Part shown: positions 1,395 to 56,953 of the stretch, one piece after another
Numbering within the stretch: position 1 is the stretch's first letter
Layout of the letters: every line of letters begins with the position of its first letter
From: a virus
Taxonomy: Duplodnaviria; Caudoviricetes
Virus record (IMG/VR): IMGVR_UViG_3300033147_000418
Span: 2,193-66,192 of that record
Strand: one strand, 5' to 3'
DNA: 64,000 nt
Translations under genes and position numbers: made by a program
Notes under the pieces: generated by a model
Database searches by the model: none
What the model saw: the letters and a program-made list of their open reading frames with translations, nothing else
What the model was told of the DNA's origin: nothing

Positions 1395-1871
1395 ATGGAT
1401 GCGGGGAAAAAAACCGCACCCGATTGCATGCGAATACGGAGACCAATCAACACCGTCGCGACGGAGCAGGTTCGAGGCACTCCCAGCCAGCTACTGGCTG
1501 ATCGATGCCCCGACAGGTTGGTGGTGTTCCCGGAGACAGCGTGCACGAACCTCGGGTGCGAATTCCGCGTGAACAAGTCCGAGTATCTCAACTGCTCATT
1601 CGTTGCTGCCGAGGGAGGAGAACACACCCTTGAAGCGATCGGCGAGATGCTGGGGATCACCCGAGAGGGTGTTCGCCTGATCGAGCGACGAGCGTTGAGG
1701 AAGCTGCGGACATCATTGGACCAGCGCAATGCTAAAGCCTCCGTACAAAAACCGGGTATGGCTGCAGGGACGTGTAACGTCGCACCCCTCAGTAAAATCG
1801 CTCAGCCCCAGGACAAAGCTGACGGCCTTCCAGCTCTCGATGGTCGAGGGTTGGGAGAATGCGTCGGGTGA
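1395..1871 (+). CDS. Cys-rich protein with a sigma70 region-4-like HTH
   Basis: HTLEAIGEMLGITREGVRLIERRALRKLR matches the sigma region 4.2 consensus (TLEEVG..F.VTRERIRQIE..ALRKLR). Start uncertain; 3' end overlaps the next gene. Confidence 0.65.
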   Translation: MDAGKKTAPDCMRIRRPINTVATEQVRGTPSQLLADRCPDRLVVFPETACTNLGCEFRVNKSEYLNCSFVAAEGGEHTLEAIGEMLGITREGVRLIERRALRKLRTSLDQRNAKASVQKPGMAAGTCNVAPLSKIAQPQDKADGLPALDGRGLGECVG

Positions 1872-12129: not shown

Positions 12130-13023
12130 CTAGGTGAGCGTCATCTTGGCCGCGGCGCGCAGGTTGCCGTAGCCGAGTCCGATGTACTCCCAGGTCTGCC
12201 ACGAGACCATGTCGGCCCGCTTCTCGATGTAGAACTTCGTGTCGTTGAGGATGTAGAAGTTCCCGAGGTACTTCGGGTCGGTGAAGATGTACAGGTCACC
12301 GGGGGGCACGATCGACGACTTGATCGTCACGACCAGCTTGTGGCCGAGGATGGTGTTGTACTTGTACCCGTTGACGAGAACCTCGGACGCCAGCGGCGAG
12401 CCGATGATCGCGGACTCCTGGGTCATGAAGTCGTCCCAGTCGGCCTTGTGCATCAGGATGCAACCGACGGCGAGTTCGTCCGTGTCCAGGGCCTTGAACA
12501 GCTTCACCAGGTTCTCGGACGTCGCGGGGCCGGCGGCCGCCGGGACGATCGTCTTGCCGTTCGCGACGATGACCGCGTCGGTGAACTCGATGAACTTGCC
12601 ATCCTCGATCTTCTGGATGTCCTTGACCGAGTTCTCCTCGATGACCTTGGTCACCGGGTAGTCGAAGGCCAGGAGCTCCGCTTCGTTCTTGCGAAACTTC
12701 TCGCTCTCGATCTTGAAGAACGGGATCTCGTAGCGGTCGCCCTCGATGTAGCGCTCGAAGGCCTTGCCGCGGAAGTTGACCGCGGCGGCGTTCGACTGCG
12801 GCTCGATGTCGACGATCTTGACGAGCGTGTCGTGGTTGACGGAGCGCTGGCAGTCCGCTTTGGTGACGTACTCGGGCGGCAGGATGCTGCGCGTGAACGA
12901 TACCTCGCGCAGGCGCTCGCGCACGAATGCGCCACCGGCCTGTGCAGCCTTCTCGAGCCCGTCGTGGGTGTCGAGGCGTGAGATGAAGAGGTTGTTGAAA
13001 GTGGCGGCGTCGATCTGGTCCAT
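12130..13023 (-). CDS. major capsid protein (HK97-like fold)
   Basis: 297 aa after scaffold/decoration genes; IQKIEDGKFI spine helix, ILGHKLVVT, VPPGDLYIF, WEYIGLGYGN; strong SD AAGGAG. Confidence 0.8.
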   Translation of the reverse strand: MDQIDAATFNNLFISRLDTHDGLEKAAQAGGAFVRERLREVSFTRSILPPEYVTKADCQRSVNHDTLVKIVDIEPQSNAAAVNFRGKAFERYIEGDRYEIPFFKIESEKFRKNEAELLAFDYPVTKVIEENSVKDIQKIEDGKFIEFTDAVIVANGKTIVPAAAGPATSENLVKLFKALDTDELAVGCILMHKADWDDFMTQESAIIGSPLASEVLVNGYKYNTILGHKLVVTIKSSIVPPGDLYIFTDPKYLGNFYILNDTKFYIEKRADMVSWQTWEYIGLGYGNLRAAAKMTLT

Positions 13024-25144: not shown

Positions 25145-25166
25145 ATCCGGGCATAAGAAGGGTGAA
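25145..25166 (+). promoter_or_regulatory. putative phage promoter (22-bp exact repeat of 56932-56953)
   Basis: ATCCGGGCATAAGAAGGGTGAA. Confidence 0.65.
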
Positions 25167-33293: not shown

Positions 33294-33686
33294 TCAAACC
33301 GTGGATTGCAACGTTATGCGGGCGATGAGTTTAACCGTCGCCCCGGTCGAGCGGATCACGAGGGATTGCTTCTTGGACAGCACCACCGACTCTCCGACGG
33401 TCGTGACGAAGTCTGTTTCGTCGGTCCCGCACAGGAAGAGCAGCTCGTCACCATCGCGGTCGCGTTTGTGCACGGTCCACGAGGTCTGTCCGCCGAGCTT
33501 GAGCTCGACAGAGCGCACCATCAACGGTTCCGTGAGCTCGGGATCGGGTGTGAACAGCCCACCCACGGCGCCTATCGGATAGGCCTCGAGGTGGTCGCCA
33601 CGGATGATGGCGTCGACGGGCACGACCCCGGTCCAGTCGTTGGCCGCGAGCAGCTTCTGCTCGATGATGCGCAGGCCGTTCGCCAT
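33294..33686 (-). CDS. hypothetical protein
   Basis: 130 aa, coupled to the terminase stop. Confidence 0.6.
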   Translation of the reverse strand: MANGLRIIEQKLLAANDWTGVVPVDAIIRGDHLEAYPIGAVGGLFTPDPELTEPLMVRSVELKLGGQTSWTVHKRDRDGDELLFLCGTDETDFVTTVGESVVLSKKQSLVIRSTGATVKLIARITLQSTV

Positions 33687-35455
33687 TAGAATCTCCCGTG
33701 GCTGATGTCGGCTGCCAGCTTGCAGTAGGCCAAGCTGTGCAGCGCGTCGTCCGGCTGGTCGATGGGGTGGTCGTACATCATCATCCTGGTGCGATCATTG
33801 TACTCCACGTACTCGGCGAGGATGTCGGCCCCGAATGGCTCGAACTCATCCCAGGCCGGGAACATGAACCGCTCCTGCTTGATGTCCTGGAACAGCTGCG
33901 AAAGCACAGCGTTCCTGTTCACGATGAACTTGAACGCGTTTGGATCCCAGCGCTTGCGCTCGCCAAGCGACGTCGAGTAGGCGAATTGCATGACGGCGTC
34001 ACGGCCGCGGGCCGCAAACAGCCGACTGTTCATGCCCCACCCGTGTCCCCAGTCTGCGCCCAGCACCTCGACGTTCCAATATCCGCAGAGATGGATTACG
34101 TCGGGCAGGATGAACTCGGGATCGATCTCCTTGCCGACATACCGCTTCATCATGAACGGCCAGAAGAGTTCCTCGTTGAGGTAGCCCCCGATGGTTAGCA
34201 CGGTCCACGAAGCGTACTTCTTCCGTCCGCCGACTCTCTCGCCCTCCTCTCGCCCTTCCCCCCAGTCGATCCCCGCGAAGAGTCGCATCCCAGCGTGCTC
34301 ACTGGACCGTCGATGGATGAACGCGGCGGACGACTTTCCCTCGACCTGCTTGCTTGGATGACAGCACCGCTGGACGTCCATTCGTGTAACAGGCGCCGAG
34401 GCTGTGTCGAAAGCAAAGCCCAAGATCTCGTTGTTGAACTTGGACTCGGGCCACTTCTCGAACGGCAGCACAATCTCTGCGTGCCAGGCCTCGGGTGATT
34501 GTTTCCATGGCACCATCAGCTGCGAGATGTGGTAGCCGACATAGAATTCGTCAGGCTGGAAGGAAACCCATTGCCCCTGTGCTGGGTTGATTCGCTTGCC
34601 ACAGTTCGAGCAGATCAGGCCAGCCTTCCCTATGCAGTTCGAGTCGAGAAAATTCCAGAACCTGGGCTTTTTGCAATCACACGGAACAAGCCATTCGTTC
34701 TGAGTCGACCAGCTCCAATACTCCTCGAGCGTGTTCGAGAAGGTCAGCGGTGTGCCGGTGAGCATCTCGCTGCCCTCGACGCCGGCGGCTAGCCTCGAGG
34801 CCGACAGCGACTGGCTGATGACCTTGATGTTGTCCTTCAGCAGGTCCTGGGCTTCATCGAAGAACACGCGACTCGCCGGGATGCCTCGGGCGCGCGCCGC
34901 GGTCAGGAAGGCGTAGCGCAGGAACATGTAGGAGCCGTTGAGCAGCGTCTTCTCGAAGACCTGGTCAGTGATCCCCTTGCCGACGAACACGTCCTTTATG
35001 AACGGAGAATCGTAGATCGTTGGACGCAGTTTCTCGTTCGAGTACTGCCGGGTCTGAAGAGCCGACGGAGAGACGTATAAGCTGCGCCAGTGCGGCCGGA
35101 TCACAGCCTCGAGCAATTGCAGGTTGCAGATGGTGGTCGACTTCGCGACCTGGCGCGAACACTTCAGGACAATGCGCGGGTCCTCGTTGTTGTAGACGGG
35201 AAGCAGGAATGCGTGGTTGTCAAGCCTGAGCGGGCGACCAAGGTGGTGAAGTATGGACTGCGCAATGTCGCTCTTGCGTCCACGGAAAGCCGGCTTGTCC
35301 GTCTCCGTGTCGATCTCGAGCAAGCGAGGCTTCCAGTCGTAGGCCTTGTTCCAGTCGATGTTGGTCGTGAATTTTGGTGGTTCGGTATAGCCGGTGAGAT
35401 CGAAGGGATCAGCGTCAAGGGCTTCGTCGGTTTCGGCTGCGTTGATGTCGGCCAT
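33686..35455 (-). CDS. terminase large subunit
   Basis: Walker A VLKCSRQVAKST, Walker B VFFDEAQD, GTP coupling motif, nuclease AGIDWG and PDDALHSLAY. Confidence 0.9.
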   Translation of the reverse strand: MADINAAETDEALDADPFDLTGYTEPPKFTTNIDWNKAYDWKPRLLEIDTETDKPAFRGRKSDIAQSILHHLGRPLRLDNHAFLLPVYNNEDPRIVLKCSRQVAKSTTICNLQLLEAVIRPHWRSLYVSPSALQTRQYSNEKLRPTIYDSPFIKDVFVGKGITDQVFEKTLLNGSYMFLRYAFLTAARARGIPASRVFFDEAQDLLKDNIKVISQSLSASRLAAGVEGSEMLTGTPLTFSNTLEEYWSWSTQNEWLVPCDCKKPRFWNFLDSNCIGKAGLICSNCGKRINPAQGQWVSFQPDEFYVGYHISQLMVPWKQSPEAWHAEIVLPFEKWPESKFNNEILGFAFDTASAPVTRMDVQRCCHPSKQVEGKSSAAFIHRRSSEHAGMRLFAGIDWGEGREEGERVGGRKKYASWTVLTIGGYLNEELFWPFMMKRYVGKEIDPEFILPDVIHLCGYWNVEVLGADWGHGWGMNSRLFAARGRDAVMQFAYSTSLGERKRWDPNAFKFIVNRNAVLSQLFQDIKQERFMFPAWDEFEPFGADILAEYVEYNDRTRMMMYDHPIDQPDDALHSLAYCKLAADISHGRF

Positions 35456-40018: not shown

Positions 40019-40035
40019 GGCATAAGCATTTCGAG
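40019..40035 (+). promoter_or_regulatory. putative phage promoter GGYATAAG-N6-G
   Basis: GGCATAAGcatttcGAG upstream of ssb. Confidence 0.55.
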
Positions 40036-40961: not shown

Positions 40962-41414
40962 ATGGACGTCGAGCAAGTTGCCGCTAAGGCCAGGGAGGCG
41001 CTGCTGTCGACGGCGCCAGAGCACGTACGCAGGCTTGGGGGGATTCTCCGGGGCTGCATCGAGAGCGGAAAGCACGACAAGCTCAAAACCTTCCTCGAGG
41101 AGGAAGGCTTAGATGTCGACGTGACCCTCATGGGAGAGTTCCGTGATGTCCTGATCGTCGGAAGAATCGACCTGATGGACTTGGTCCCCGCCGCGCGCGA
41201 ACGACTGCGTACGCGAACACTCGCCAATCAGCCACCGGACTCGATGACAGACGAATACCGTGCCGCTGAGGCGGCAGGCAAGAAGCTGCACTGTCGCGAT
41301 TGCAGATACTTTGTCGTTCCGCCCAGGGACGGAACCGACGAAGCCGACAAGGCGTGCGTCGAGTTCGGGACCAAGGGGATCGACAAAGCCTGCTTCGGCT
41401 TTCTATCGAGCTAG
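40962..41414 (+). CDS. hypothetical protein with a C-terminal Cys cluster
   Basis: CRDCRYF...C...C..F. Confidence 0.65.
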   Translation: MDVEQVAAKAREALLSTAPEHVRRLGGILRGCIESGKHDKLKTFLEEEGLDVDVTLMGEFRDVLIVGRIDLMDLVPAARERLRTRTLANQPPDSMTDEYRAAEAAGKKLHCRDCRYFVVPPRDGTDEADKACVEFGTKGIDKACFGFLSS

Positions 41415-41420
41415 CACAGT

Positions 41421-41461
41421 GGGGGAGGGGTCGGGTGGTTCCCCCCTCCCCCCTTTTTAGC
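41421..41461 (+). terminator. hairpin terminator with TTTTTAGC
   Basis: GGGGGAGGGG...CCCCTCCCCC stem, then TTTTTAGC. Confidence 0.7.
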
Positions 41462-42563
41462 CTGCCTTGGCGATTCGGAACCCTCTTTGAGGGTTGTACA
41501 AGGACTCGAGAAGGTCTTTGTAGTAGGCGAGGTTTGACGGGGGCTTGGCCTGAGTGCGCCCTCGAGCGGTCGCGTTGAGCCGTGAGTTGGGCTTGATATC
41601 CTTCGGCTTCGGGGGGGTGGCTCCGCCGATACGCCATGCTGCCGCCGCGCTGTTGCGCAAGACGCCAGGGGCTTTGATCTCGGCACCAATCTGCGCAGCG
41701 GTTTTCGAGCCTTCCTCGCGACGCCTGTGGAGCGCCTTGACGAGGTTGCGCGCAACCACGGTTGCGATGATCGGCGCTGCCGCACTCGCGATGTACGTCC
41801 CGAACGCCGGCGCGAGCTCCTTGATTGCGCGAAGGGTCCCGATGTTGTGGAGCTTCGCCCCCCTTACGGCCCGAAGCGACGCGCGCCCTTCCTCCGCCAG
41901 CTCGGGCAGCATGGTCGCGCCGACGAACTCCGGTGCGTGGTCGTACGCAAACCGACGCGCGCGCGAGGCGTCTTCGTCGGGCGGCAGCAAAACGTTGCCG
42001 AGCGCAGCGTATCTTGCCAGCGCTCCAGCCCGCCCGCGTTGCCCGAGCCCCATTCCGATGTCCTGAACGAGTCGCCGAGCGCGAACGCTTCCCCGGATAG
42101 GGGCAGCGTGCCCGATCTCATGGAAGGCGTGGGGGACCGACGACCTGGTCAACCCAATGTGCGAGGGAAGATCTGGTACGTCGCGCTTCAGAACACGCTG
42201 ATAGAAAGTCTTTAGCCGATTCGTTGGAAGCTCTTTGTCGTAAAAATACGATTGCCCAGGCACAACTGACGACTTGATGGGCTCGACTACTCCACTTTTT
42301 TCAGCGAAGCGTTTGATTGCTTTGACTTCGGCTCGTGTGAACTCTGCGATGCGCGCGAGCGGTGTCTCTCCGTCGGCCTTGATAGATTTCCCGCTTGCCA
42401 GAAGATCAGTGAGGCCGCTCGGCAAGTCGCTGAGCAGTTGCCGGGTAATGCGCGGGAGACCTTCGTACACGGCTGCGCCAGCAAGCGCAGGGGCGACGCC
42501 GAGTTCTTTGCGGATCGCATTCTCGCGCTTGATTACGGACGGACGCTTCTCGCTTTTTGGCAT
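41457..42563 (-). CDS. HExxH zinc metallopeptidase-like virion protein (paralog of 20999..22423)
   Basis: FHEIGHA...DHAPE..GAT...EEGRAS...LAPAFGTY; SKTAA; TGATG coupling to the RNAP stop. Confidence 0.65.
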   Translation of the reverse strand: MPKSEKRPSVIKRENAIRKELGVAPALAGAAVYEGLPRITRQLLSDLPSGLTDLLASGKSIKADGETPLARIAEFTRAEVKAIKRFAEKSGVVEPIKSSVVPGQSYFYDKELPTNRLKTFYQRVLKRDVPDLPSHIGLTRSSVPHAFHEIGHAAPIRGSVRARRLVQDIGMGLGQRGRAGALARYAALGNVLLPPDEDASRARRFAYDHAPEFVGATMLPELAEEGRASLRAVRGAKLHNIGTLRAIKELAPAFGTYIASAAAPIIATVVARNLVKALHRRREEGSKTAAQIGAEIKAPGVLRNSAAAAWRIGGATPPKPKDIKPNSRLNATARGRTQAKPPSNLAYYKDLLESLYNPQRGFRIAKAG

Positions 42564-45500
42564 CAATACACGCCTTCCGTCTTGGATCGGCTGGTGGTTT
42601 TAGCTTTGCCCTGCAGGTCGAGCCCACCCTCTGCACCAAACTCTGCACCGTAGACGAATGAGGGGACGGGTGCATACCCGTGGATGTCTGACTCTTCTCC
42701 CTCGGTGGCTCCGCGGACGAGCGACTCGACAAGCTTGCGATATCCGAGTTGGCTCATCCAATCCTTCCTGAGCATCGGAACTCGCTCAATCCCGTGGAGC
42801 TCAGGCAGGTCGATGATCGGCCGGGGGCCAACCTCGACCTCGGATTTGCCAGCACGCTGGATCAACGTCTTCGTTCGCTCGTCGATTATGCGCCCCTTCT
42901 TGGCGCCCGGAATGTCTTCCTTCAAGATGTGGCCGACCACATCGTCGACCGACATCTTGCCCAATGACTGCTCGTTGAATGAGCGAACCTCCGTCCAGGG
43001 CGCGAGTTCGTTCCTGAGGTATGAGCTCCCTCCAGGGTCAAGGATCTTGGTCGTGTTTCCGATTGACCGGAGAACCGTCTCTATGTTGCGCCGTTTGATA
43101 GGAGCGCCTTGCTTGTCGTAGGCATCCTGGATTTCCCCGGAGATGTAACTCAATGCTGTTGGCAGATCCTTGGTTAGCTCGACGAGCTCCTTTGGCTCAA
43201 CGATGCCGTCGGACAGGATCTGCCCCTTGGTCACAACGCTACCCGTGCGAATTCTGCTGGAGTTCCACTCTGGCTCGGGAATGAAAACTGGCTTGGGGTT
43301 TCCTTTCTTGTCGACGGCTCCATCGATGAACACATTTCGTCCGCGGCCGTCGGGGTCTTTCTCGATCCGCTGCACTCGCCCGGCAGCTGGTGCCAACATC
43401 GCCTTGCCCTGCTTGACTTTGTACATCTTGAAGAGCTTGTCGATTTTCGCGTAGCCGCTGATAGCCGTCCTGGTGCCAGAGATGCCGCCCTGATGGAACG
43501 TTCGCATTGTCATCTGCGTGAGTGGTTCGGACAGCGACTGACCGGCGACTGCCCCGATGTTGTCCCCGATGGCCGGAAGCGTGCCAAACTCGTTCAGGCC
43601 GTAGCATTTTGCGCAGGTCCCCTTTGGCATCTTGCACATGATAGGGGAGCGAACGTCGATCTGCTCGATCTTGCGCTTCTGTAGCTCGGCAAGCATCACC
43701 GAGGTCACCGCGTCGCCAGCCTTCGCGAGCACCCGTCCGCCGACTCGGATGTCCTTGGACAAGAAGCGGTCCTCCACATCCACGCTCTCAGTGGGCAGCT
43801 TGAGTCCCTCAGTCGTCATGCAGTCATCCTTCGAGACGACGTTGGTAATCGCGGCGGCCATGATGTCTTTGTTGAACGCACCGGGGTTCGCCGTCTGGAG
43901 CTGCTTATCGACCGCAGACGCCCGCGCTCCATAGAGCGTGCTCCAGTAGTCGGAGAACGGGAGACCCGCCGCGAATGACGTCGTGATTGGGATGGGGCTT
44001 GGATTCCCCCTGTGGTCATCGACCATGAACGGCGCCGAGACGATCTGCTTGAGCTGGTTCATGTTGCCTCGCGCGCCGGAGCGAACCATCAAACGGAAGT
44101 TGTTGCCTTGCTTGTCGAGGCTCTTCTCTACAATCGCGTCGATTTCCTCGTTGACCGCATCTAGCTTGTCCGCCGCCGCCTCTCGCCCCTTCTTGGTGTC
44201 GAGCCGCAAAGCGGAGACTTCGGCAAATGTCTTCTTGAAGAGAGCGTCCTTCTCCGGGATCGGAGGGAGAAGATCGTTGAGGCTAACGGTAACTCCGAAG
44301 TTGTACGCGTGGTCGTCGCCGAGCCTCTTGAGCTTGTCGACTACGTCGCCGTACTCGTTCGGAAGTTCATCGGCTACCGACTTGACCATCCCGTCGAGAA
44401 CCTCCTGGGTGAGCACCTTGCCACCGAACTCCTTGCTGGTTTTGGGCGGAAGCACCGCTGCGATCTGCTTGCGGAGCTTCGGGTCCTTCGACATCAAGTA
44501 GAGGCCAAGCGAAGATTCGTTCTGTGGCGCGATCATGACCCGGCCCGTTCCCGGGTTGTATAAATGCTTCGAGGGGAGCATCCCTTCCGCCTCACGGATC
44601 GCATCGTCGAGTATGGGAACGTGGACGGTCATCGCGTCGCCATCAAAGTCGGCGTTGAACCCCTTGACGACCAGCGGAGGAATCTTGATCGCTTTCCCGT
44701 CGGTCACTTGTGGCTTGAAGGCCATGATGGAGAACTTGTGGAGCGACGGGGCTCTATTCAAGATTACCGGCCGCTTCTGCATCTCCTGGGTAAGCATCGC
44801 CGCGGCCGCGGCGGACCTATCCGCAACCGCCTCCTGCGCCTCCTGCGGGCTCATGCCGCCGTGCACAACTAGGCGCCGGCGAACGAAGGGGCTGTAGAGC
44901 TTCCACGACATGTCGAGCGGGAGTCCCACCTCGTCGAGTCCGAGCTTGGGCTCAGGGATGATCGTCCCGCGCCCAACCAGGTCTTGCCGCCGGCTGACTA
45001 GCTTGTCCTGGAAGAAACCCGTCTTAGGACTGGTGCCCTTGATTTGTTCAACGATGCCCTTGGGGCGGCGCTTCTCCGGATAGTAGGCGATCGGCGAAGT
45101 GAATCCAGCGAGAGCTTTGGTCCCCTCGTACAGCTTGCCTCTCCACTGCGCCTTGATGGCATCGGTGATGAACGGGACTTCGTTCTGCCACTTGAGCTCG
45201 TTGTTGATGAGGCCGATGTCGCGGTAGAGGTTGTTCAGCCCCGGCACGGACAGGTCGCCATCGGCCATTTCTATGATCGGGCGAAACACGGGCGGCATGA
45301 CCGGGATTTTGGTTTGAAGGTATGCATCCTCCGGCCGAACCCCCAGCTTCTTCAGAGCGCGGAGATACTTAATCTTCGTGTGCGCTCGATTCAGCTTCGT
45401 GGTGCCCCGCGCCTTCTTTGCTTCATCGGTCCAGTGAGCCAGTTCCGTGTCAACATCGATCTTTGAAAGCAGGTACTTGAACGCTGCGCCACCGGTAAGG

Positions 45501-48500
45501 CCTTGTTCGGCGAACTCCCCGGTCTCGGGGTCGATGAAGACTTCTCCTCGGATCAGTCCCTCGAACTGCGCCTTCTTCAGCTCCGTTTTCTTTGGTCCGA
45601 TGTCGATTAGCTTCTTGATGGGGGTTTCGAACACGGGATTCGGGATCGGCTCCGCGAGCTCGATGTGCCCCCAGCGAGTGCCTTCCCTGCCCCCGAAGAT
45701 TTGCCGGTCCATCAAGCCGGTCTTCATCTCGCTCATCTTCCCCGAGTAGATGAATACAGGCGACTCCACCTCACCATTGCTCAGGCTGGCCGTCTCCTTG
45801 TCCGTCATGGGGCCAACAACCAGCCTTGAGCCGTTTCGCTCCACGTTTACGCCCGCGGCCTTCAAGTAGGCTTCGAACTTCCGATAGGCGAAAGTCGGCT
45901 TTGGTGGCGGGGGAGCCTGAATGCCCGTGTGCTCCGCGGTGCCGGTCAACCAGGTCCAGAAGTCCTCGTTCTTCTCCGCCTTGTACGTCGCCATCTCTCG
46001 AAGGTTTGCTCGCGCGCCGTGCGCCAGCATCGAGTACATCGAGATCATGTCGAGAGACTTCGAGCCGTCGTCTCCACCGCGCAAAGGCTGGCGGTTGATG
46101 TCGTATTTTCCATCGTCGCGCGCCGAAAACTGAGACGTTGCCTGCTTCGACAGCTTGAGGATGTACTGGGGGCCGACAAGCACCTCGCCGAGAGGCTTCT
46201 TGCTCTTCGGATCGTAAAGCGTTTCGACGTCTGAAATACCCGCAACGGCGAGGGCCTTCTTCACGGTTACGGCGTGATTTTCACCGTTGAAGTTATCCAC
46301 CGCGTACGGCTTCTTGCCGAGGTCCGCGATCTTGGCTGCCGCTGTTTCAAGCAGCTGCGAAGGGTTGATCCTACTCACCACGCCGGCGGGGTTCAGCAGG
46401 ATATCGACAGGCTTCCCATCGGCTGTGTGTGGTGCGTCACTGACCGGGATGATGCGCGTGATGATGCCCTTGCCGCCGTGTCGGTTGGTCAGCTTGTCGC
46501 CGATTTGCGCAGGCTCTTCGGTCTTCACGTAGACCTTGACGCGCTGCCCTTCCTTCACGACGTCAATGACCGTACCGACCGCATCCCCATGCCAGGTTTC
46601 CTCAAAGCCTAGAACCTCCTTGTGGGTCTTCAGCATCCGCTTAGCGGTGATGATCTCCGGGTCGTACTTGTTCTGGCGAACGCCTGCCCAGAGCGGGTCT
46701 CCCTTGTGGATCTTCGTCCCCTTCTTGATCACCCCATCGTCGTCCAACATAGCGAGCAACTCAGGTGAAAGCCCGTTCGCCTTGTGCGCGCGGTATTTGG
46801 CTTTGGACAGCTCCGAGCTGCCCTCGATCTTGAACACGTATTCGTGCAGATGTTCGCTGGTGAGCTGCTCGGCCGCATCCTCCGTGATGACGATCCCGTC
46901 TTCGAAGTTGTAGCCTTTCCACGGGATGTACGCGGCGCGCAAGTTCGTGCCCAACGCGAGCGTCCCGTCCCTGGTGAAGTTCGAGTCCGCAAGCACGTCG
47001 CCCGCGCCGACTTCGTCGCCCGGCTTCACCGTAGGTGTCGCGTTGAGAAAGGCTTTGTTGTTGAGGGGCAGGTTGTTGTAGACCGGGTATTCGACATCTC
47101 GCCCCCGGGTGGTGATAACGATCTTGGTCTTCGACACGCTCTTGACGACGCCGGCGTCGATTGAGCGAATCGAAAAGCCTGAACCCAAAGCGTCCTCGAT
47201 CGTGCCACGGCCGATCTTGACCTGGACAAGCGGGGCTTGGCGATGCTTGAGGGGGATAGCCTGCTCGAGCATCTTCGTCGCCATCTGTGCGCGAACGCCC
47301 TGCGCCGACGCCAGGAACGGGATCGTGTTCGACGCGACAGAGAATGCCTGGCGCGCGCTCTTCAGCACCACGTCGACCTTCTTTGGGTCAACCAGCTGAT
47401 GTTCGCCGGCCACGAGGGCCTTGACCTTCTTGCCAATGGGTTTTCCATCAGGGAACTGGTCGGGGAAAGAGAGAACCAGATCCTTCATCTCCGAAGGAGA
47501 GACCCTGCGCGTGGACTTCTTTCGTCGGTCGTAAACGAGGGTCATCAGCTGATCGCCGCTCTTGGTTACCCCGACAGGAAGAGTCATCACCAGCCCGATG
47601 TTCTCTGAGTCCGGCGTGTGAATAGGATCGATGAAGCCTGCCTGCGACGGATGGAGCGAATGCGCTGCATTCCCGGCGCGCTGGGCGCTGGCCAACCCCC
47701 CTTCGCCCAGTACCGTGATCTTGGACATTCCGTTGATCATGTTGAGCGGGTTGGTTTGATCGGTGGTGTTCGAGAGCGCGCTGCTGGTAAAAAACGAGTC
47801 GATGATCGGCGAGAGAGCGCTTGGGCGAATGACGTCCTTGACGGCCTCTGGCTTGTATCTGTAGCTGCGCAGCTTCTTGAGGATCCCCTTCCGAAACCCC
47901 TCCATCACGGGAGTGAGTTCACCGTTCTCCTTGATGAACCGTTCCTTGATGAGGTCGGAAACGCTAAGCGTTTTCTTGTACTCGAGCGCATGGCGGTCGT
48001 CCGGTCGCCGATCCCCGGTGGTAGCGAGCATGACCTGCTTCGCTGCGTCGGCCAAAACTTCGCCACTGACCTTCTTGTACCGAACGCCGACCGTCTCCTC
48101 GGTTACGTTGGGATCCAACACCGCTTCTGCAAACTGCTCGCGGAGCTTCTCTACGGCCTGGTCGGCCGACACGTACTCCCCCGGGTGCAAAGCCTTCGCG
48201 ATACTGATGACAGACTGAGCACTTTTCTTTTCGCTGATGGCCTTGTTCGCCGCGAGCGTCGACTCGCCCCACTTTTTTGCCAGCAGCGAATCTGAGATTC
48301 CGAGCCTGGACAAGAGCGGATAGAGAGGCCACGCGCTGGATCCGCGCACAACGCTGAACTTGCCAGTAGCAACGTCCATCTCGATCCCGAACGAGCGCCC
48401 CGTCGTCATCACCTCCGCTTTCATGTCGCGGCTCTTCTTCTGGGTGACGTAGATGCCCGGGCGACGACGCAACTGGTTGTAGACCTGGTAGTGCTTGCCG

Positions 48501-48820
48501 TTGACGATGAAGCTGCCGAGTGTCGTGTTTTTGGGGAGGATGGCCAGCCGTATCTTCGGTTCGCGCGAGAGAACCTTCCCGGTGTTTCGGTCTATGAGCT
48601 CGACGTCGGCGTAAACCGGAACGCCCCAGGTCTTGTCCTTGCGCGAAGCGTCGCGCTGCCCTTTCCAGTCCTGCGGGTCCTTGTTGTCGTTGACCCAAAC
48701 CTTCCTGGCTCGCAGCGACAGCCCCGCCTTCGCCGCGTCTGCGGTGAGAGCCTTCGTGAACGCCTGCGCGACGTTCTTTTTGATGAGCTCAAATTGGCCG
48801 TCGTAGTCGAAGGTCTCCAT
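42563..48820 (-). CDS. rpoBC: single-chain DNA-directed RNA polymerase, beta-beta' fusion (~2085 aa)
   Basis: Beta motifs GSFIVNG, DQTNPL, TPDSENIGL, GYNFEDG, GDKLTNRHGGKG, NPAGVVSRIN; beta' motifs GHIELA, NRAPSLH, NADFDGD, SGARG, CAKCYG, MRTFHQGG, all in one frame. Start is ATG 48820 or GTG 48832. Confidence 0.95.
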   Translation of the reverse strand: METFDYDGQFELIKKNVAQAFTKALTADAAKAGLSLRARKVWVNDNKDPQDWKGQRDASRKDKTWGVPVYADVELIDRNTGKVLSREPKIRLAILPKNTTLGSFIVNGKHYQVYNQLRRRPGIYVTQKKSRDMKAEVMTTGRSFGIEMDVATGKFSVVRGSSAWPLYPLLSRLGISDSLLAKKWGESTLAANKAISEKKSAQSVISIAKALHPGEYVSADQAVEKLREQFAEAVLDPNVTEETVGVRYKKVSGEVLADAAKQVMLATTGDRRPDDRHALEYKKTLSVSDLIKERFIKENGELTPVMEGFRKGILKKLRSYRYKPEAVKDVIRPSALSPIIDSFFTSSALSNTTDQTNPLNMINGMSKITVLGEGGLASAQRAGNAAHSLHPSQAGFIDPIHTPDSENIGLVMTLPVGVTKSGDQLMTLVYDRRKKSTRRVSPSEMKDLVLSFPDQFPDGKPIGKKVKALVAGEHQLVDPKKVDVVLKSARQAFSVASNTIPFLASAQGVRAQMATKMLEQAIPLKHRQAPLVQVKIGRGTIEDALGSGFSIRSIDAGVVKSVSKTKIVITTRGRDVEYPVYNNLPLNNKAFLNATPTVKPGDEVGAGDVLADSNFTRDGTLALGTNLRAAYIPWKGYNFEDGIVITEDAAEQLTSEHLHEYVFKIEGSSELSKAKYRAHKANGLSPELLAMLDDDGVIKKGTKIHKGDPLWAGVRQNKYDPEIITAKRMLKTHKEVLGFEETWHGDAVGTVIDVVKEGQRVKVYVKTEEPAQIGDKLTNRHGGKGIITRIIPVSDAPHTADGKPVDILLNPAGVVSRINPSQLLETAAAKIADLGKKPYAVDNFNGENHAVTVKKALAVAGISDVETLYDPKSKKPLGEVLVGPQYILKLSKQATSQFSARDDGKYDINRQPLRGGDDGSKSLDMISMYSMLAHGARANLREMATYKAEKNEDFWTWLTGTAEHTGIQAPPPPKPTFAYRKFEAYLKAAGVNVERNGSRLVVGPMTDKETASLSNGEVESPVFIYSGKMSEMKTGLMDRQIFGGREGTRWGHIELAEPIPNPVFETPIKKLIDIGPKKTELKKAQFEGLIRGEVFIDPETGEFAEQGLTGGAAFKYLLSKIDVDTELAHWTDEAKKARGTTKLNRAHTKIKYLRALKKLGVRPEDAYLQTKIPVMPPVFRPIIEMADGDLSVPGLNNLYRDIGLINNELKWQNEVPFITDAIKAQWRGKLYEGTKALAGFTSPIAYYPEKRRPKGIVEQIKGTSPKTGFFQDKLVSRRQDLVGRGTIIPEPKLGLDEVGLPLDMSWKLYSPFVRRRLVVHGGMSPQEAQEAVADRSAAAAAMLTQEMQKRPVILNRAPSLHKFSIMAFKPQVTDGKAIKIPPLVVKGFNADFDGDAMTVHVPILDDAIREAEGMLPSKHLYNPGTGRVMIAPQNESSLGLYLMSKDPKLRKQIAAVLPPKTSKEFGGKVLTQEVLDGMVKSVADELPNEYGDVVDKLKRLGDDHAYNFGVTVSLNDLLPPIPEKDALFKKTFAEVSALRLDTKKGREAAADKLDAVNEEIDAIVEKSLDKQGNNFRLMVRSGARGNMNQLKQIVSAPFMVDDHRGNPSPIPITTSFAAGLPFSDYWSTLYGARASAVDKQLQTANPGAFNKDIMAAAITNVVSKDDCMTTEGLKLPTESVDVEDRFLSKDIRVGGRVLAKAGDAVTSVMLAELQKRKIEQIDVRSPIMCKMPKGTCAKCYGLNEFGTLPAIGDNIGAVAGQSLSEPLTQMTMRTFHQGGISGTRTAISGYAKIDKLFKMYKVKQGKAMLAPAAGRVQRIEKDPDGRGRNVFIDGAVDKKGNPKPVFIPEPEWNSSRIRTGSVVTKGQILSDGIVEPKELVELTKDLPTALSYISGEIQDAYDKQGAPIKRRNIETVLRSIGNTTKILDPGGSSYLRNELAPWTEVRSFNEQSLGKMSVDDVVGHILKEDIPGAKKGRIIDERTKTLIQRAGKSEVEVGPRPIIDLPELHGIERVPMLRKDWMSQLGYRKLVESLVRGATEGEESDIHGYAPVPSFVYGAEFGAEGGLDLQGKAKTTSRSKTEGVY

Positions 48821-48840
48821 CAAGGCACTCACGTTGTTGC

Positions 48841-48857
48841 GGCATAAGCCTAGTGCA
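48841..48857 (+). promoter_or_regulatory. putative phage promoter GGYATAAG-N6-G
   Basis: GGCATAAGcctagtGCA, divergent from the RNAP gene. Confidence 0.5.
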
Positions 48858-48952
48858 GGAGGAGTTATAGGAACTCGTCGACGATCGCGAGTAGCGTTGG
48901 CGTCGGAACGATCGCATCCTTCGGTCTTCCGCTCATCGGTCACGGGCTTACC

Positions 48953-49147
48953 ATGTCCGAGGTTCCCTCGATCGCCCTGGGCGCGGGCAAGAGCGTCTTG
49001 CTCTTCGGGGGCAAGGCACTCCTCTTCCTGGGGGTTGGCGTCGGGATCCTGTACCTCGGACGCTGGGTGCTCAGCGGCATCCTGGACTGGGCCGATAGGG
49101 TCGAGGCGCGCGTGGAGCGTATCCGCCCCCGGGCGGAAGTAGTGTAG
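48953..49147 (+). CDS. small membrane protein
   Basis: ALLFLGVGVGILYLG transmembrane-like segment. Confidence 0.55.
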   Translation: MSEVPSIALGAGKSVLLFGGKALLFLGVGVGILYLGRWVLSGILDWADRVEARVERIRPRAEVV

Positions 49148-49148
49148 C

Positions 49149-49610
49149 GTGATTACCGCCGCGCACCTCTGGTACAGGTACGGAATTGGACCCCAGAAGA
49201 ACGACAAGAAGCCGTCGTTCTTCGGGTTCGCTCGCGTTGCTGGTGTTGCCGCGGTAGTCGTTCCCGCCCATGGATACGTGATTGGCAGTCGAGGCGCTGT
49301 GTCGCTCGGTCTCCAATCGATCAGGGGCCCCCTATGGAAGATCGTGAACAAGTTCTTCGGCGCGGTGGCGTGGATGTTTGCCATCTCGGCCGGGCTTTGG
49401 CTTGTGCAACACTTCACCGAACGGTGGACTGGTGCCGGGTATCCGATGATCTTCCCAAGCGTCGCCACGATCGCCGGTCAGCAAGCAGGGAACACGCAAC
49501 CAGGTAACAGAAGGGACGGTATCCCGAACGGTCTCGGAGCCGGCTCTGCACATAGGAGGACGCAAAGTAACGACTCGGACCTGTCGGACATCTTCTTCTC
49601 CGGTCGCTAG
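49149..49610 (+). CDS. putative membrane protein
   Basis: Two hydrophobic segments; convergent with 49607. Confidence 0.55.
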   Translation: MITAAHLWYRYGIGPQKNDKKPSFFGFARVAGVAAVVVPAHGYVIGSRGAVSLGLQSIRGPLWKIVNKFFGAVAWMFAISAGLWLVQHFTERWTGAGYPMIFPSVATIAGQQAGNTQPGNRRDGIPNGLGAGSAHRRTQSNDSDLSDIFFSGR

Positions 49611-50447: not shown

Positions 50448-50450
50448 TGG

Positions 50451-50969: not shown

Positions 50970-51261
50970 CGGATTCTCCTTTGGTGCGTTTGGGGGGTTT
51001 CTCCCAGTAATGTACCACCAGGTACACGTCTTCCTGGGTGGTCACGATCCCTTCGGGGCCACCCTCTCTAATCACCGTCTTGCGGGTGTACTCGCGGATT
51101 TGCTCGATATTGATTCCGCTCGAAGCGTTGTTCGCGTTGGTGCGAAGGTCGCCGTAGGTGACCATGTCCTCTGGTTCGAACATGTTGAACGACTTGCACC
51201 TGAATTCGCCCATGCTCTTGGCCGAATCTGCGAACTTGACCTCGGTTGCTTTGGCGGCCAT
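50917..51261 (-). CDS. hypothetical protein
   Basis: Coupled to the portal stop; 114 aa. Confidence 0.6.
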   Translation of the reverse strand: MAAKATEVKFADSAKSMGEFRCKSFNMFEPEDMVTYGDLRTNANNASSGINIEQIREYTRKTVIREGGPEGIVTTQEDVYLVVHYWEKPPKRTKGESDEDEQKQRDLQSVSSGS

Positions 51262-53321
51262 CAGACGCTCCCGTCCTTGCGCCGCGGCGGCGCCTTCTGA
51301 GGCAAAGGCTTCATCCGGTCGGAGACGGCCGCTGCGGTTTCGCCAGGCCGCATCTGACCGAGCAGTTGTTCCACGATCCGAGCCATGTTCGGCATGCGGC
51401 GTCTCAGGTCATCCAGGACAGCGACGCGCTGAGCTGACTCCATCTTGGAGATTTTGTTCGCCCACTGCTTGGCGATACGAGCGGCATCCATCTCGACGAC
51501 TTGCCCGCCCCCAGACTGCTCACCGGCCTGTCCTGCCACCTGCGCCGGCATCTCAGCTGCTTGGCCTTGAGCTGCCTGGGTGGCCATCTGGCTGTCGTCG
51601 GCTACAGCGCCGCCCGAGGGCGGCGGCGCCGCTCCTGGCTGCTGTGGGGCTGCCTGCCCCGGCGGCTGTTGACCAGCCTGGCCCGGCGCACCCTCCTGGG
51701 GCGGCGGCGCTCCTGGCTGCTGTGGAGCGCCACCTTCGCCGGACACCTGCCCCTGGGCCTGCTCGGCCTGTGCCGGCTGGCCGCCAGAGATCGCACCCTG
51801 CGCCTCATTGAACGCCTCTTGCGCGCGCGCCTGGTACTTGGCCTGAACAATCTGCGATTCGCCCTGAGCCTCGGCCTGAGCCTTCATTGTGATGGCCTGG
51901 ATCCGGTTGCGCGACTCGGCTTCCTTCTCGATCATCTCCTGCTCGTCGTCGTAGTCGAAACCGAGCTCGGTGAGCATTGTGTGATCGGAAATCTTGTTGG
52001 CGGCGTTCAGCTGGATGACGATCTGCTTGCGCTGGATGTCGTCCGCCATCTTGAACTCGGTGAAGCCGATGTCGACATCGGGCATCCCGAGATAGAGGCG
52101 CAGGCGATTCTTCGCCCAGTTGACGAAGCGAAGCAGAAGTCGCCGGTACATGAGGAAGTGGTTCTCGAGGGTGCGAAGAGACACGCTCGAGCCAGACCAG
52201 GAGAGCCCGCCGAAGACGAACTCGATGGGCACGCCCATCCCGCCCGTGATCTCCTTGTTCGTGACCTCGATCTCGGGCCCGAGCAGAAGCGCGCGACCGT
52301 CGCCGCCGAGGCGCTCGAAACCGAGCGGAACCGAGACCACGGAGATGTAGTTCGGGTCGACCCGCCACTTGCGGATCTCGGTCTGCACCGTGCCTTGCCA
52401 GCTCGAGAGGTTGACGTGCTGGTAGGGGTCCTGCTGGCCGTTGGCCTGCGGGAAGATGAACTCGAGCGGCATGATCCGCTGCAGCGCGATCGCTTCCTGC
52501 GCGCGCCGGAGCACGTACAGGTAGAACATCCGCCCCATCGAGTGAATGATGAGCGGCTTGCCCCAACCCATGTCTTGCTCGGCGAGTGTGGGGCGCTTGA
52601 AGTGGAAGAGGTTCTGATCGCTGAGCGCGATAGACCGCTTCTTCCGGAGCGCCTCAAAGAAGATCGCCGGGATGTCTACGATGATCTCCCGGGTGCCGTC
52701 CTGGATAGCCTTGCGGATCTTGTTGGGGATCTTGTAGCGGTACTTGGACCGCCCCGTGATCGGGTTGTAGTGGATGTCGATGTTCTTCGGATCCCATCGA
52801 ACGAAGTTGATGCCTGTCCGGTCGCGCACAGGCACATCCACGATTTCGCCGATCACGTTACTGCCGCAGCCTGGGCACGCGATGCTGAACTGGAAATTCT
52901 TGAACGAGAACTTGAACTCGGGGTCTGCCAGCTTGTGCATGGACTTGCAGACAGGGCAGCGAATCCATCGAATGAACGGCAGGTTCAGCGAGATGAACGC
53001 GTTGCCGTAGCAGAAATAGTCGAGCCCGATCTCGATCAGGAACGGCTTGAAGTTGAGGGTGTCCTCGAGCAGCTCGCGCCATGCCTCGCGGACGTGCTTC
53101 TCTTGGGCGTTGTAGACGAAATCCGTGACCGGGTACTCGGCGACCTTGGTCACCACGGCCCCGATCATCGGGTCCTTGTAGAAGAAGTACTGGCACCACC
53201 GGAAGAGCTCCTTCACGGTGGGCGGCATGTAGGTTTGCGCGATGTCGAAGAACGGTGACGGATACACCGTCCCGCGACGTCGGTCGACCTGCGACAGCCC
53301 TATCGATTGGTCATCAGCCAT
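51261..53321 (-). CDS. portal protein
   Basis: DYFCYGNAFI, RWDPKNI, GWGKPLI, ITGGMGVPIEFVFGG; Zn-ribbon insert; Q/P/A-rich tail. Confidence 0.85.
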   Translation of the reverse strand: MADDQSIGLSQVDRRRGTVYPSPFFDIAQTYMPPTVKELFRWCQYFFYKDPMIGAVVTKVAEYPVTDFVYNAQEKHVREAWRELLEDTLNFKPFLIEIGLDYFCYGNAFISLNLPFIRWIRCPVCKSMHKLADPEFKFSFKNFQFSIACPGCGSNVIGEIVDVPVRDRTGINFVRWDPKNIDIHYNPITGRSKYRYKIPNKIRKAIQDGTREIIVDIPAIFFEALRKKRSIALSDQNLFHFKRPTLAEQDMGWGKPLIIHSMGRMFYLYVLRRAQEAIALQRIMPLEFIFPQANGQQDPYQHVNLSSWQGTVQTEIRKWRVDPNYISVVSVPLGFERLGGDGRALLLGPEIEVTNKEITGGMGVPIEFVFGGLSWSGSSVSLRTLENHFLMYRRLLLRFVNWAKNRLRLYLGMPDVDIGFTEFKMADDIQRKQIVIQLNAANKISDHTMLTELGFDYDDEQEMIEKEAESRNRIQAITMKAQAEAQGESQIVQAKYQARAQEAFNEAQGAISGGQPAQAEQAQGQVSGEGGAPQQPGAPPPQEGAPGQAGQQPPGQAAPQQPGAAPPPSGGAVADDSQMATQAAQGQAAEMPAQVAGQAGEQSGGGQVVEMDAARIAKQWANKISKMESAQRVAVLDDLRRRMPNMARIVEQLLGQMRPGETAAAVSDRMKPLPQKAPPRRKDGSV

Positions 53322-54546: not shown

Positions 54547-54735
54547 TCAGCCTCCGTTGGCCCACCAGGGCCCGCGACCGCTACCGGCGGCCGGATCGTA
54601 ACCGGACTTGGCGACATCGTCGCGCGCACTTCTCACGCTATTGGCAAGCCGGTCCAAGTACTCTTTCCGAAAATCGGACAACAACCGTGCAATCTCTCGC
54701 GCTGCCAGGGTTTTCTCCTGCTCAGTCTCACTCAT
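54547..54735 (-). CDS. small hypothetical protein
   Basis: MSETEQEK..., ATGA-coupled to the upstream gene; fills the gap. Confidence 0.55.
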   Translation of the reverse strand: MSETEQEKTLAAREIARLLSDFRKEYLDRLANSVRSARDDVAKSGYDPAAGSGRGPWWANGG

Positions 54736-55706: not shown

Positions 55707-55708
55707 CG

Positions 55709-56931: not shown

Positions 56932-56953
56932 ATCCGGGCATAAGAAGGGTGAA
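56932..56953 (+). promoter_or_regulatory. putative phage promoter (22-bp exact repeat of 25145-25166)
   Basis: ATCCGGGCATAAGAAGGGTGAA. Confidence 0.65.

Follow-up and report, generated by a model that had tools for sequence, protein, structure and literature searches.

Alignment shows that a gene at 42563..48820, minus strand, of a 64,000-nucleotide stretch of a virus record (IMG/VR record IMGVR_UViG_3300033147_000418; this whole stretch is hereafter the window) has as its predicted product a catalytically competent single-chain two-barrel RNA polymerase (RNAP), in which beta is joined head-to-tail with beta'. Our preferred reading, to which we give a probability of roughly 0.55, is that this enzyme would be expressed with the morphogenesis operons, packaged, ejected with the DNA and used to start phage transcription, probably together with a phage sigma factor. 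The source record is a 66-kb fragment of a ~180-kb phage (CheckV: 36% complete). Dozens of independent viral contigs, as well as cultured phages, carry this gene in the same phage surroundings; the lineage is large and mostly uncultured, with Salmonella phage Arash and Vibrio phages D69, D148 and D181 as its cultured representatives.

On the minus strand the frame is open without interruption from 42563 to 49468, or 2301 codons counted from a GTG. Comparison with relatives puts the true start at the ATG at 48820, for a product of 2085 aa plus the stop: alignments of relatives begin at residue 1 of the 2085-aa protein, and the 216 codons upstream of this ATG overlap a conserved opposite-strand gene (49149-49610). 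An earlier note on this DNA had described one frame of ~2085 aa carrying beta motifs and then beta' motifs, and the ORF translation, the order of the Pfam domains, the alignments and matches to PHROGs 24349 and 25354 bear this out. The chain is also, as claimed, shorter than the beta plus beta' of enteric bacteria (1342 + 1407 = 2749 aa in Salmonella). G+C is uniform across the RNAP region. A near-identity DNA search with 25 kb against phage records gave zero matches, and scanning the window for Rfam families and tRNAs produced no hit.

Pfam places Rpb2_3 and Rpb2_6 at residues 353-915 and, after these beta domains, Rpb1_1, Rpb1_2, Rpb1_4 and Rpb1_5 at residues 1123-1934; Rpb1_1 scores slightly below its cut-off (37.3 versus 39.7 bits), and PF00562 and PF00623 match at 1e-53 and 2.8e-25. 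The best matches among solved structures are bacterial beta' (1e-99) and bacterial beta (1e-90). In a MAFFT alignment with 7 bacterial beta sequences, the beta module (residues 1 to ~998; 45827..48820, minus strand) aligns to Salmonella RpoB 31-1342, without the first 30 residues and without the E. coli-type insertions SI1 and SI2 (boundaries in E. coli numbering). Its active-site motif GDKLTNRHGGK (G774-K784; 46469..46501, minus strand; GDKLTNRHGGKG at 774-785) contains the lysines K776 and K784, which align to the Salmonella beta motif, and G774, D775, K776, R780, G782 and K784 are invariant in 11/11 and 19/19 aligned sequences.

The beta' module (residues ~1001-2085; 42566..45820, minus strand) was delimited by alignment with 7 bacterial beta' sequences and by PDB matches; its lid, clamp helices, rudder, switch 2, bridge helix, trigger loop and jaw can all be aligned, and SI3 is missing. 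The catalytic motif NADFDGD (N1389-D1395; 44636..44656, minus strand) is retained in 19/19 family members, with N389, A390, D391, D393, G394 and D395 invariant in 14/14. All 37 bridge-helix positions align to Salmonella beta' (11 identities), as do all 30 trigger-loop positions (17 identities), and the alignments to Salmonella RpoB and RpoC thus agree with the previous observation that NADFDGD, both beta lysines and the trigger loop are intact. A contiguous xxDxDGD motif is present in 111 of the 120 closest clusters; 7 of the other 9 are long forms, and in the 4 inspected an insert splits the motif. The alignments also show that the chain retains the parts to which sigma binds in bacterial RNAP: the clamp helices of beta' and the position of the beta flap tip.

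Four cysteines of the second beta' zinc site (Cys1667, Cys1729, Cys1736 and Cys1739; 43604..43822, minus strand) align to Salmonella beta' positions that we take to be Cys814, 888, 895 and 898. They are the sole conserved cysteines of the family and occur in 18/19 members, the exception (P0022) having lost all four. At the carboxyl end lies a clade-specific tail (42566..42676, minus strand) of the form P-x-P-(A/S)-F-x-Y-G-A-E-F-G ... G-x-Y. The 19 family members share it with Arash gp216, Vibrio D69 and the majority of IMG/VR relatives, and it was not found in 9 bacterial beta' sequences or in the other phage RNAPs compared.

At the beta/beta' junction (residues 975-1048; 45677..45898, minus strand), the Salmonella beta C-terminus (residue 1342) pairs with window residue ~998, and a family profile of the segment after the junction matches bacterial beta' N-termini at residues ~20-80 (iE 1.8e-5 to 3.9e-3) in 5 of the 9 bacterial beta' sequences offered. 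Both results bear out the suggestion that the junction has essentially no linker; a phmmer search of solved structures with the 180-aa junction piece alone gave 0 matches. The four-Cys zinc ribbon of the beta' N-terminus is replaced by a 32-residue gap, with no Cys in residues 975-1075. The segment is also free of cysteine in 17 further clade ORFs and 19/19 family members, and the predicted zinc-ribbon deletion is clade-wide. Junction length is constant in 19/19 aligned family members. A frameshift artefact at this point is very unlikely because the junction is crossed by 150/150 representatives among the matches listed. The junction piece alone matches 1030 protein clusters at 50% identity, and on this comparison fusion is the normal arrangement throughout a family of ~1000 such clusters.

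The genes around the polymerase place it inside a virion gene block, as the earlier note had proposed. Upstream on the same strand is a portal protein gene (51261..53321, minus strand; PHROG 64 and 16240; 29% identity to Arash gp204). Downstream are terminase, a gp218-like protein and the major capsid protein (MCP), in an order collinear with Arash: the terminase large subunit gene lies at 33686..35455, minus strand (PHROG 675, 3.4e-50; Pfam GpA_ATPase, PF05876; Arash gp1), and the MCP gene at 12130..13023, minus strand (32.6% full-length identity to Arash gp226, annotated as MCP, and a weak match to Pfam Phage_capsid, PF05065). A portal gene stands upstream of the RNAP gene on the same strand in 23/36 loci, some of which stop at contig ends, including Arash and D69; in these two phages the portal gene overlaps a small gene, which in turn overlaps the RNAP gene. 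The portal run and the RNAP gene do not adjoin in the window, where the latter has a 132-nt upstream region of its own. Between them stand a small unconfirmed ORF (48953-49147) and a gene for a 153-aa hydrophobic protein (49149..49610, plus strand), homologues of which, found by tblastn, are opposite in strand to the RNAP gene in 3/3 close relatives (L003, L004 and L005). The RNAP stop codon and the start codon of the gene that follows share bases (TGATG), a translational coupling that fits the coupling described before. That gene (41457..42563, minus strand) encodes 368 aa with HEIGH (HExxH) at residue 148, a motif retained in 3/3 homologues; the protein falls into 29 clusters, 0 with a Pfam family, and its protein atlas matches are all viral.

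An 8-nucleotide motif, CTTATGCC, lies 21 nt upstream of the RNAP ATG (48841..48848, minus strand) and is a candidate promoter element. Three further copies, all on the minus strand, stand ahead of a 334-aa gene that heads the gp218-like/terminase run (40019..40026, with orthologous copies in L003, L004 and L005), 86 nt before a conserved 380-aa gene (55709-56851) that heads the portal run (56937..56944) and 70 nt before ORF 24697-25080 (25150..25157). The window thus has 4 copies versus 0.60 expected, all on the gene strand and within the intergenic 7.4% of the window. In the three closest relatives 11/11 copies are on the gene strand at orthologous places; the motif was found by enumerating 8-mers, and copies that relatives have at orthologous places do not count as separate events. 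Among the forms tried only the exact 8-mer stood out: the 11-mer AGGCTTATGCC, with 2 mismatches allowed, showed no enrichment (14 matches versus 9.8 expected), a generic repeat finder gave no promoter-like family, and a scan of 41000-51500 for the sigma-70 consensus found 0 sites versus 2.1 expected. By sequence, CTTATGCC is a conserved upstream motif common to the RNAP gene and other morphogenesis operons.

A search of the 66-kb record for alpha (PF01000), omega (PF01192) and sigma region 2 found none of the three. A 158-aa protein (1395..1871, plus strand) has a sigma-70 region-4 helix-turn-helix alone, and the claim that a full sigma gene is absent, like that for alpha and omega, holds for this record, which is 36% of the phage. 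PF01000 and PF01192 were found in 0/5 near-complete relatives, with controls positive in 14/14 genomes. Each of these five (including a 189-kb genome that has terminal repeats) has one gene bearing PF00623, a model that might overlook a strongly diverged second polymerase. Two relatives have 271-272-aa ORFs with sigma regions 1.2, 2, 3 and 4, homologous to Arash gp10; domain matches thus show that some relatives encode predicted full sigma-70-family factors, which could instead serve the host polymerase.

We propose that the RNAP gene would be co-expressed with the morphogenesis operons via a common compact promoter, TTCA...CTTATGCC...GAGTG, that its protein would be loaded into the capsid and then ejected along with the DNA, and that the ejected enzyme, probably with a phage sigma, would start phage transcription before any phage protein is made. 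Fusion might be favored under this scheme: a single chain would dispense with alpha-assisted assembly, and there would be no separate subunits to reunite once the tail has been crossed. The earlier note had likewise supposed that the enzyme is made late, packaged and injected; the Arash virion proteome, the portal linkage and the shared motif lend this indirect support. A broader version, which we regard as rather doubtful, would rest the whole transcription programme on a 230-kDa chain without alpha, omega or zinc ribbon, with tail-directed co-packaging with sigma, ejection as a holoenzyme ready to work, and compact CTTATGCC-type promoters read independently of the host polymerase. It would extend to ~180-kb tailed phages across the ~1000 50%-identity clusters, with the clade-specific C-terminal tail as the loading route.

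The alternative that survives best, though we consider it unlikely, is a non-virion polymerase made during infection from its own promoter and transcribing middle or late genes, in the manner of T7 RNAP or the phiKZ non-virion enzyme. Such an enzyme would suit the gene's own upstream region and the at least one conserved opposite-strand gene between it and the portal run; as the only RNAP of its genome, the enzyme may be needed throughout infection. Against this, non-virion phage polymerase genes known so far sit among early or middle genes, whereas this gene shares CTTATGCC with morphogenesis operons, and in Arash and D69 there is an overlap between its counterpart and the portal-proximal gene. 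The particle proteome of Arash, whose homologue is 33.5% identical to the window RNAP, bears on both sides. In it, gp206 has the most spectra of all proteins (3516, versus 1333 for the capsid protein), gp216 has 1210, and the sigma-like gp10 has 467 with 100% coverage (PMC10585845). The particles came from a single sucrose gradient, and plainly non-structural enzymes (ribonucleotide reductases, dNMP kinase and pyrophosphatase) are on the same list, with carry-over raised by the authors as an explanation (PMC10585845). On the non-virion reading, detection of the polymerase would be lysate carry-over too.

Packaging of an active enzyme also has to be weighed against a polymerase that has lost its activity and persists as a structural or cargo protein. 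We found nothing specific in favor of this, apart from the loss of the four zinc cysteines in P0022, and consider it very improbable, as family members down to 40% identity keep the catalytic aspartates, both beta lysines, the bridge helix and the trigger loop.

We built two trees, from the beta' core and the beta core. Both are quick searches with no bootstrap, and both recover a 33-row phage-only clade with SH-aLRT 99 (beta') and 98 (beta), in which the window is joined by 18 metagenomic fused proteins and 12 IMG/VR loci as well as Arash and D69. The only cellular sequences in the trees, 9 bacteria that represent several phyla, fall on one side of a branch (support 90 and 100), and the window enzyme is apart from them, not nested among them in either tree. 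It is likewise separate from the phiKZ-like and Rhizobium-phage enzymes, and split-chain forms are a subclade within the fused forms (SH-aLRT 98). A scan of 185,579 species genomes returned bacterial rpoB/rpoC matches only, at no more than 31% identity, with no prophage copy and no hint of a host (best 80 of 600 matches). The NCBIfam equivalog cut-offs were missed for both rpoC (468.8 versus 963.5 bits) and rpoB (351.2 versus 801.15). The suggestion that the enzyme is a host rpoBC or rpoB-rpoC captured by chimeric assembly, which its motif-level likeness to bacterial RNAP and its best solved-structure matches might favor, is refuted by the low identity, the failure of every equivalog cut-off, its place outside the bacteria in both trees, its recurrence in viral contigs and cultured phages and the even G+C, and has a negligible probability. 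The virus record, the phage neighbor genes and the phage-only clade all support a phage-encoded single polypeptide.

The closest known systems are Arash (gp206 and gp216) and Vibrio phages D69, D148 and D181, whose RNAPs are ~30-34% identical to the window enzyme and share its clade, ribbon-less fused junction and C-terminal tail, along with an upstream portal gene and collinear morphogenesis genes. The window chain is uncut, whereas theirs has a single break within beta', close to window residue 1453, with nine genes between the two parts in Arash and other genes intervening in the Vibrio phages too. This is a natural split site because the boundary between the cyanobacterial rpoC1 and rpoC2 models of NCBIfam, which on the window end at residue 1451 and begin at 1492, respectively, brackets it.

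The novelty implied in the earlier note was overstated: ~1000 clusters share the fusion, cultured members exist, and a phage lineage with deep-branching beta/beta' was published in 2020 as mReC, for multimeric-RNAP-encoding Caudovirales (Weinheimer and Aylward 2020, PMC7481178). Like the source of the window, mReC are metagenomic tailed phages encoding beta and beta' with NADxDGD amid hallmark virion genes; their RNAP branches apart from cellular RNAP (PMC7481178), and in our trees the window enzyme stands apart from the 9 bacteria. In the window, beta and beta' matches each span at least 800 aa and NADxDGD is present, as in the mReC definition, here applied with Pfam and NCBIfam models where the paper used COG models. 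The mReC MCP and TerL belong to PF07068 and PF03237, detected in 8/97 and 31/97 contigs (PMC7481178), whereas those of the window match PF05065 (weakly) and PF05876. The three mReC representatives named in the paper come from datasets other than those of our 34 IMG/VR loci, and its main text uses 'fused' or 'fusion' for crAssphage only and does not contain 'virion' (PMC7481178). We found no published description of a fused bacterial-type beta-beta' in a phage.

A functional model for the window enzyme is the phiKZ/AR9-type virion RNAP, a packaged, alpha-less, multisubunit-type enzyme that starts early transcription (PMC13282480, PMC7598289). That type is split into four or five far more diverged polypeptides, whereas the window enzyme is one chain. 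The earlier note's view of the latter as unusually close to bacterial RNAP is upheld, as it is closer than the phiKZ type and its best solved structures are bacterial. The beta' tree puts Ralstonia phage RP13, with a beta' split in this way and presumably phiKZ-like, into a group apart. Phages of the phiKZ/AR9 type are not known to have a sigma-family factor and have a second, non-virion RNAP set, whereas relatives of the window have one PF00623 gene per genome. The crAss-like phi14:2 gp66 and the N4 virion RNAP, which is T7-like, are giant single-chain polymerases carried in the particle. The crAss-like enzyme is mentioned in the mReC paper and has no detectable match to COG beta/beta' models (PMC7481178), unlike the window RNAP, which Pfam and NCBIfam find readily. 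The order of beta then beta' is also that of bacterial RpoBC fusions of the Helicobacter/Wolbachia type, whose models NF007172 and NF011417 give the best NCBIfam E-values for the window. Their scores, 561.6 and 502.1 bits, are far from the cut-offs of 5372 and 4632, and the profiles have 2890 and 2839 positions versus 2085 aa. Bacterial RpoBC fusions work with alpha and omega.

The window gene is ordinary for its family, and its value lies in the family-wide features gathered here (default fusion, zinc-ribbon loss, a single RNAP gene in each genome, linkage to the portal gene and an upstream motif in common), none of which we found in print. Arash, as a cultured relative, already permits decisive tests. 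If the enzyme is indeed packaged as one chain and works with a phage sigma, it would be the simplest natural bacterial-type RNAP that keeps the sigma-binding elements, and a minimal natural form of the sigma-dependent enzyme. It would then make it easier to study how polymerases assemble, how proteins are ejected through a tail and the early RNAP evolution discussed in the mReC paper (PMC7481178), and might find use as a compact orthogonal transcription module.

The RNA polymerase (RNAP) gene occupies 42563–48820 on the minus strand. An ORF scan of the window found a single open frame at 42563–49468, and full-length relatives align from residue 1 of the 2085-aa protein that starts at the ATG at 48820. 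The 216 codons 5' of this ATG overlap two opposite-strand ORFs, which stand between the portal run and the RNAP gene. One, a hydrophobic gene at 49149–49610 (+), is conserved in all three of the closest homologous loci (L003–L005); the other, a small hydrophobic ORF of 64 aa at 48953–49147 (+, GC3 0.88), had no match in these loci, unlike its neighbour.

Pfam beta domains (Rpb2_3, Rpb2_6) were found at residues 353–915 and beta' domains (Rpb1_1, Rpb1_2, Rpb1_4, Rpb1_5) at residues 1123–1934. RpoB and RpoC from Salmonella and six further bacteria served for alignment, with feature boundaries placed by what we take to be the E. coli numbering. The beta part, from residue 1 to about 998, aligned to Salmonella RpoB 31–1342; it keeps the flap-tip position and lacks SI1 and SI2. 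In the beta' part, residues about 1001–2085, we could align the lid, clamp helices (46 of 46 positions aligned with bacterial RpoC, 15 of them identical), rudder, switch 2, bridge helix, second zinc site, trigger loop and jaw, with NADFDGD at residues 1389–1395. SI3 is absent, and the N-terminal zinc ribbon is lost to a 32-residue gap. As far as alignment can show, the catalytic core is intact within one chain, and we consider it very improbable that the gene is an inactive relic. Residues 345–371 (window 47708–47788) align to E. coli rifampicin cluster I; at the positions we presume to be H526 and S531 of E. coli the protein has Gly and Thr, and rifampicin insensitivity is therefore predicted. 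In one family member (P0022, 2094 aa), all four Cys of the second beta' zinc site are lost and the catalytic motifs are kept.

The earlier note had proposed that beta runs into beta' with no linker, and this was borne out by a profile search in which the junction profile matched bacterial beta' N-termini directly after the end of beta. Its description of the gene proved right in every point that the ORF scan, domain searches and alignments could test; the fused beta-beta' RNAP gene is real and was correctly described. The C-terminal tail (residues about 2049–2085, window 42566–42676, minus strand) is specific to the clade; it contains PxP(A/S)FxYGAEFG and finishes with G-x-Y. It also occurs in gp216 of Salmonella phage Arash, a cultured relative whose RNAP is divided between gp206 and gp216, and in Vibrio phage D69. 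The bacterial beta' sequences compared do not carry this tail, which may serve as a signal for packaging or ejection.

The record is a linear IMG/VR virus record of 66,192 bases, rated 36% complete by CheckV, and a search with 25 kb of DNA gave no near-identical match in the phage collection. The RNAP gene sits within a long minus-strand run of morphogenesis genes, with the portal gene upstream (51261–53321) and the genes for the terminase large subunit (33686–35455) and major capsid protein (12130–13023) downstream, all on the minus strand. Also downstream are a weakly gp218-like protein, a gp222-like protein and homologues of Arash gp233, gp234, gp236 and gp237. Gene order in Arash agrees with that of the window, except that the terminase gene is gp1 in Arash. 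The proposed coupling of the RNAP gene to the next gene held as well: a TGATG overlap joins it to a 368-aa gene at 41457–42563 (minus strand). The encoded protein has a zinc-peptidase-like HEIGH motif at residue 148, retained in three of three homologues, and none of the 29 clusters of its family has a Pfam family. In at least 8 of these 29 clusters, the longest contig has the same size as that of the RNAP homologues. Further upstream, the longest-ORF call at 54732–56144 probably extends too far on its 5' side; comparison with relatives favours a 380-aa gene (55709–56851, minus strand) and, after it, a gene starting near 55703. Elsewhere, an 86-nt segment occurs three times (15343–15428, 15885–15970 and 19081–19166; 64–76% identity), inside or near adjoining minus-strand ORFs that may be paralogous small virion genes.

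Upstream of the RNAP gene lies an 8-mer, CTTATGCC. The window has four copies where 0.60 are expected, and 2 of 100 shuffles gave at least as many. Each copy is on the gene strand and intergenic, with intergenic DNA making up 4738 of the 64,000 bases. On the minus strand, one lies 21 nt upstream of the RNAP start (48841–48848) and one 86 nt upstream of the conserved 380-aa gene at the head of the portal run (56937–56944); the other two precede a 334-aa gene leading the terminase run (40019–40026) and the ORF at 24697–25080 (25150–25157). In the three closest relatives we counted 2, 4 and 5 copies, every one of the 11 on the gene strand and some at orthologous places (L003 7577, 15904; L004 1458, 17722, 19321; L005 1570, 9631, 9975, 18992); two of the 11 fall within the 380-aa gene and resemble conserved coding sequence. 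The extended consensus adds TTCA 5–9 nt upstream and GAGTG 8–10 nt downstream. The motif looks like a compact phage promoter, a candidate common to the RNAP gene and the morphogenesis operons.

The absence of alpha, omega and full sigma genes, claimed from the window, was upheld across the whole 66,192-base record. Alpha and omega genes were found in none of five near-complete relatives; the controls were positive in all 14 genomes. Each of the five relatives has one gene bearing PF00623. Two relatives encode full sigma-70-type factors (regions 1.2, 2, 3 and 4) homologous to the sigma-like gp10 of Arash. The window itself encodes a 158-aa protein (1395–1871, plus strand) with only the region-4 helix-turn-helix of sigma-70 (Pfam, 3e-10; NCBIfam sigma C-termini, around 1e-7), and beyond this helix it showed no homology to the relatives' full sigma factors.

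We propose that the RNAP would be made together with the virion proteins, packaged and then ejected, and that with a phage sigma factor it would carry out the first round of transcription. We put the probability of the packaged-and-ejected role at roughly 0.55, on the basis of the Arash proteome, portal linkage and the CTTATGCC motif, which supports production with virion proteins, packaging and ejection. According to the available part of the Arash study, its particles yielded 3516 spectra for gp206 (100% coverage), 1210 for gp216 and 467 for gp10 (PMC10585845). Portal linkage is seen in 23 of 36 loci, where the portal gene lies upstream of the RNAP gene, and in Arash and D69 the ORFs for portal, a small gene and RNAP overlap. 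A role for the enzyme outside the virion is less likely. Several points limit the certainty of packaging. The Arash particles were purified on one sucrose gradient, their protein list includes ribonucleotide reductases and other enzymes, and the authors offer carry-over as well as early transcription as explanations, in the part of their report available (PMC10585845). The window's RNAP gene is separated from the portal run, and the relatives' sigma factors might serve the host polymerase instead. If the RNAP is indeed packaged and ejected, a single chain would spare it subunit reassembly; the portion of one review that was available raises the problem that an ejected polymerase has to bring its subunits back together (PMC7598289).

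The fused form is widespread. A word-based search scored 1419 proteins at E ≤0.001, and both PF00562 and PF00623 were present in all 120 of those listed. Among these 120, 98 are 1995–2105 aa long and 22 are 2358–2883 aa; intein or LAGLIDADG Pfam families were found in 15 of the 22 long forms (e.g., P0043, P0055, P0060, P0061), and in four that we examined the insert lies inside the NADFDGD motif itself. Searching 1.84 billion representatives at 50% identity with a 201-aa junction piece (residues 900–1100) matched 1030, of which 923 scored 1e-10 or better; a single match spans the junction in all 150 listed of the 1030. Only about eight close family matches were shorter than 1146 aa, and some of these may be cut by contig ends. 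Contigs of relatives reach 170–189 kb; one of them (189,182 bp) carries terminal repeats and has a completeness rating of 100%. In the beta tree, the split forms (Arash, D69, L015, L022 and L027) make up a subclade inside the fused forms, and even in these the beta/beta' junction remains in one ORF. Arash is cut near window residue 1453, which coincides with the boundary between the NCBIfam cyanobacterial rpoC1 model, whose alignment ends at residue 1451, and the rpoC2 model, whose alignment begins at 1492. Nine small genes separate the RNAP parts in Arash, and in D181 and D148 a homing endonuclease gene lies within the stretch under the RNAP match.

Host origin was rejected. Across 185,579 species (one genome each), the best 80 of 600 matching stretches were bacterial rpoB or rpoC with at most 31% identity to the window RNAP, which also fell below all NCBIfam equivalog cut-offs by a factor of two to ten. 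Phylogeny, the check the earlier note had suggested, placed it in a phage clade outside nine bacteria in both trees, which were quick searches with neither bootstrap nor archaeal or eukaryotic outgroup. In the beta' core tree (47 rows, 350 columns), one clade (SH-aLRT 99) unites the window's protein with Arash, D69, 18 metagenomic fused proteins and 12 IMG/VR loci. The bacteria lie on one side (90), and a separate group (95) comprises Rhizobium phage Y65, Vibrio Va2, Ralstonia RP13 and E. coli phage IME392. The beta core tree (50 rows, 626 columns) recovered the same 33-row clade at 98 and the bacteria at 100. An assembly artefact is exceedingly improbable. Six IMG/VR contigs of 118–275 kb (L031–L036) represent a second phage group with a separate beta gene of about 1350–1390 aa; they adjoin the bacteria in the beta tree (SH-aLRT 95) and are distinct from the window's clade. 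Four records of the phage collection (OR844998.1, OR846602.1, CAKLQH020000005.1 and AFYI01000006.1) carry ordinary bacterial rpoB-rpoC and look like host contigs; the Staphylococcus, Acinetobacter and Salmonella records among them group with bacteria.

The window RNAP belongs to the known Arash-like lineage, which is probably part of the multimeric-RNAP-encoding Caudovirales (mReC). As described in the available text of Weinheimer and Aylward (2020), these are 97 metagenomic tailed-phage contigs with beta and beta' in a deep-branching clade; the capsid and terminase families detected there differ from the window's, and the main text uses 'fused' or 'fusion' of crAssphage only and does not contain 'virion' (PMC7481178). 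The available portions of two reviews (PMC7598289, PMC13282480) and a comparative study (PMC7824862) do not describe a fused bacterial-type enzyme, and our literature search found no publication describing a fused bacterial-type beta-beta' RNAP in a phage. What we found unstated in print holds family-wide: fusion is the default architecture, the zinc ribbon is lost, a C-terminal tail is present, each genome has a single RNAP gene, and there is a common upstream motif, CTTATGCC.
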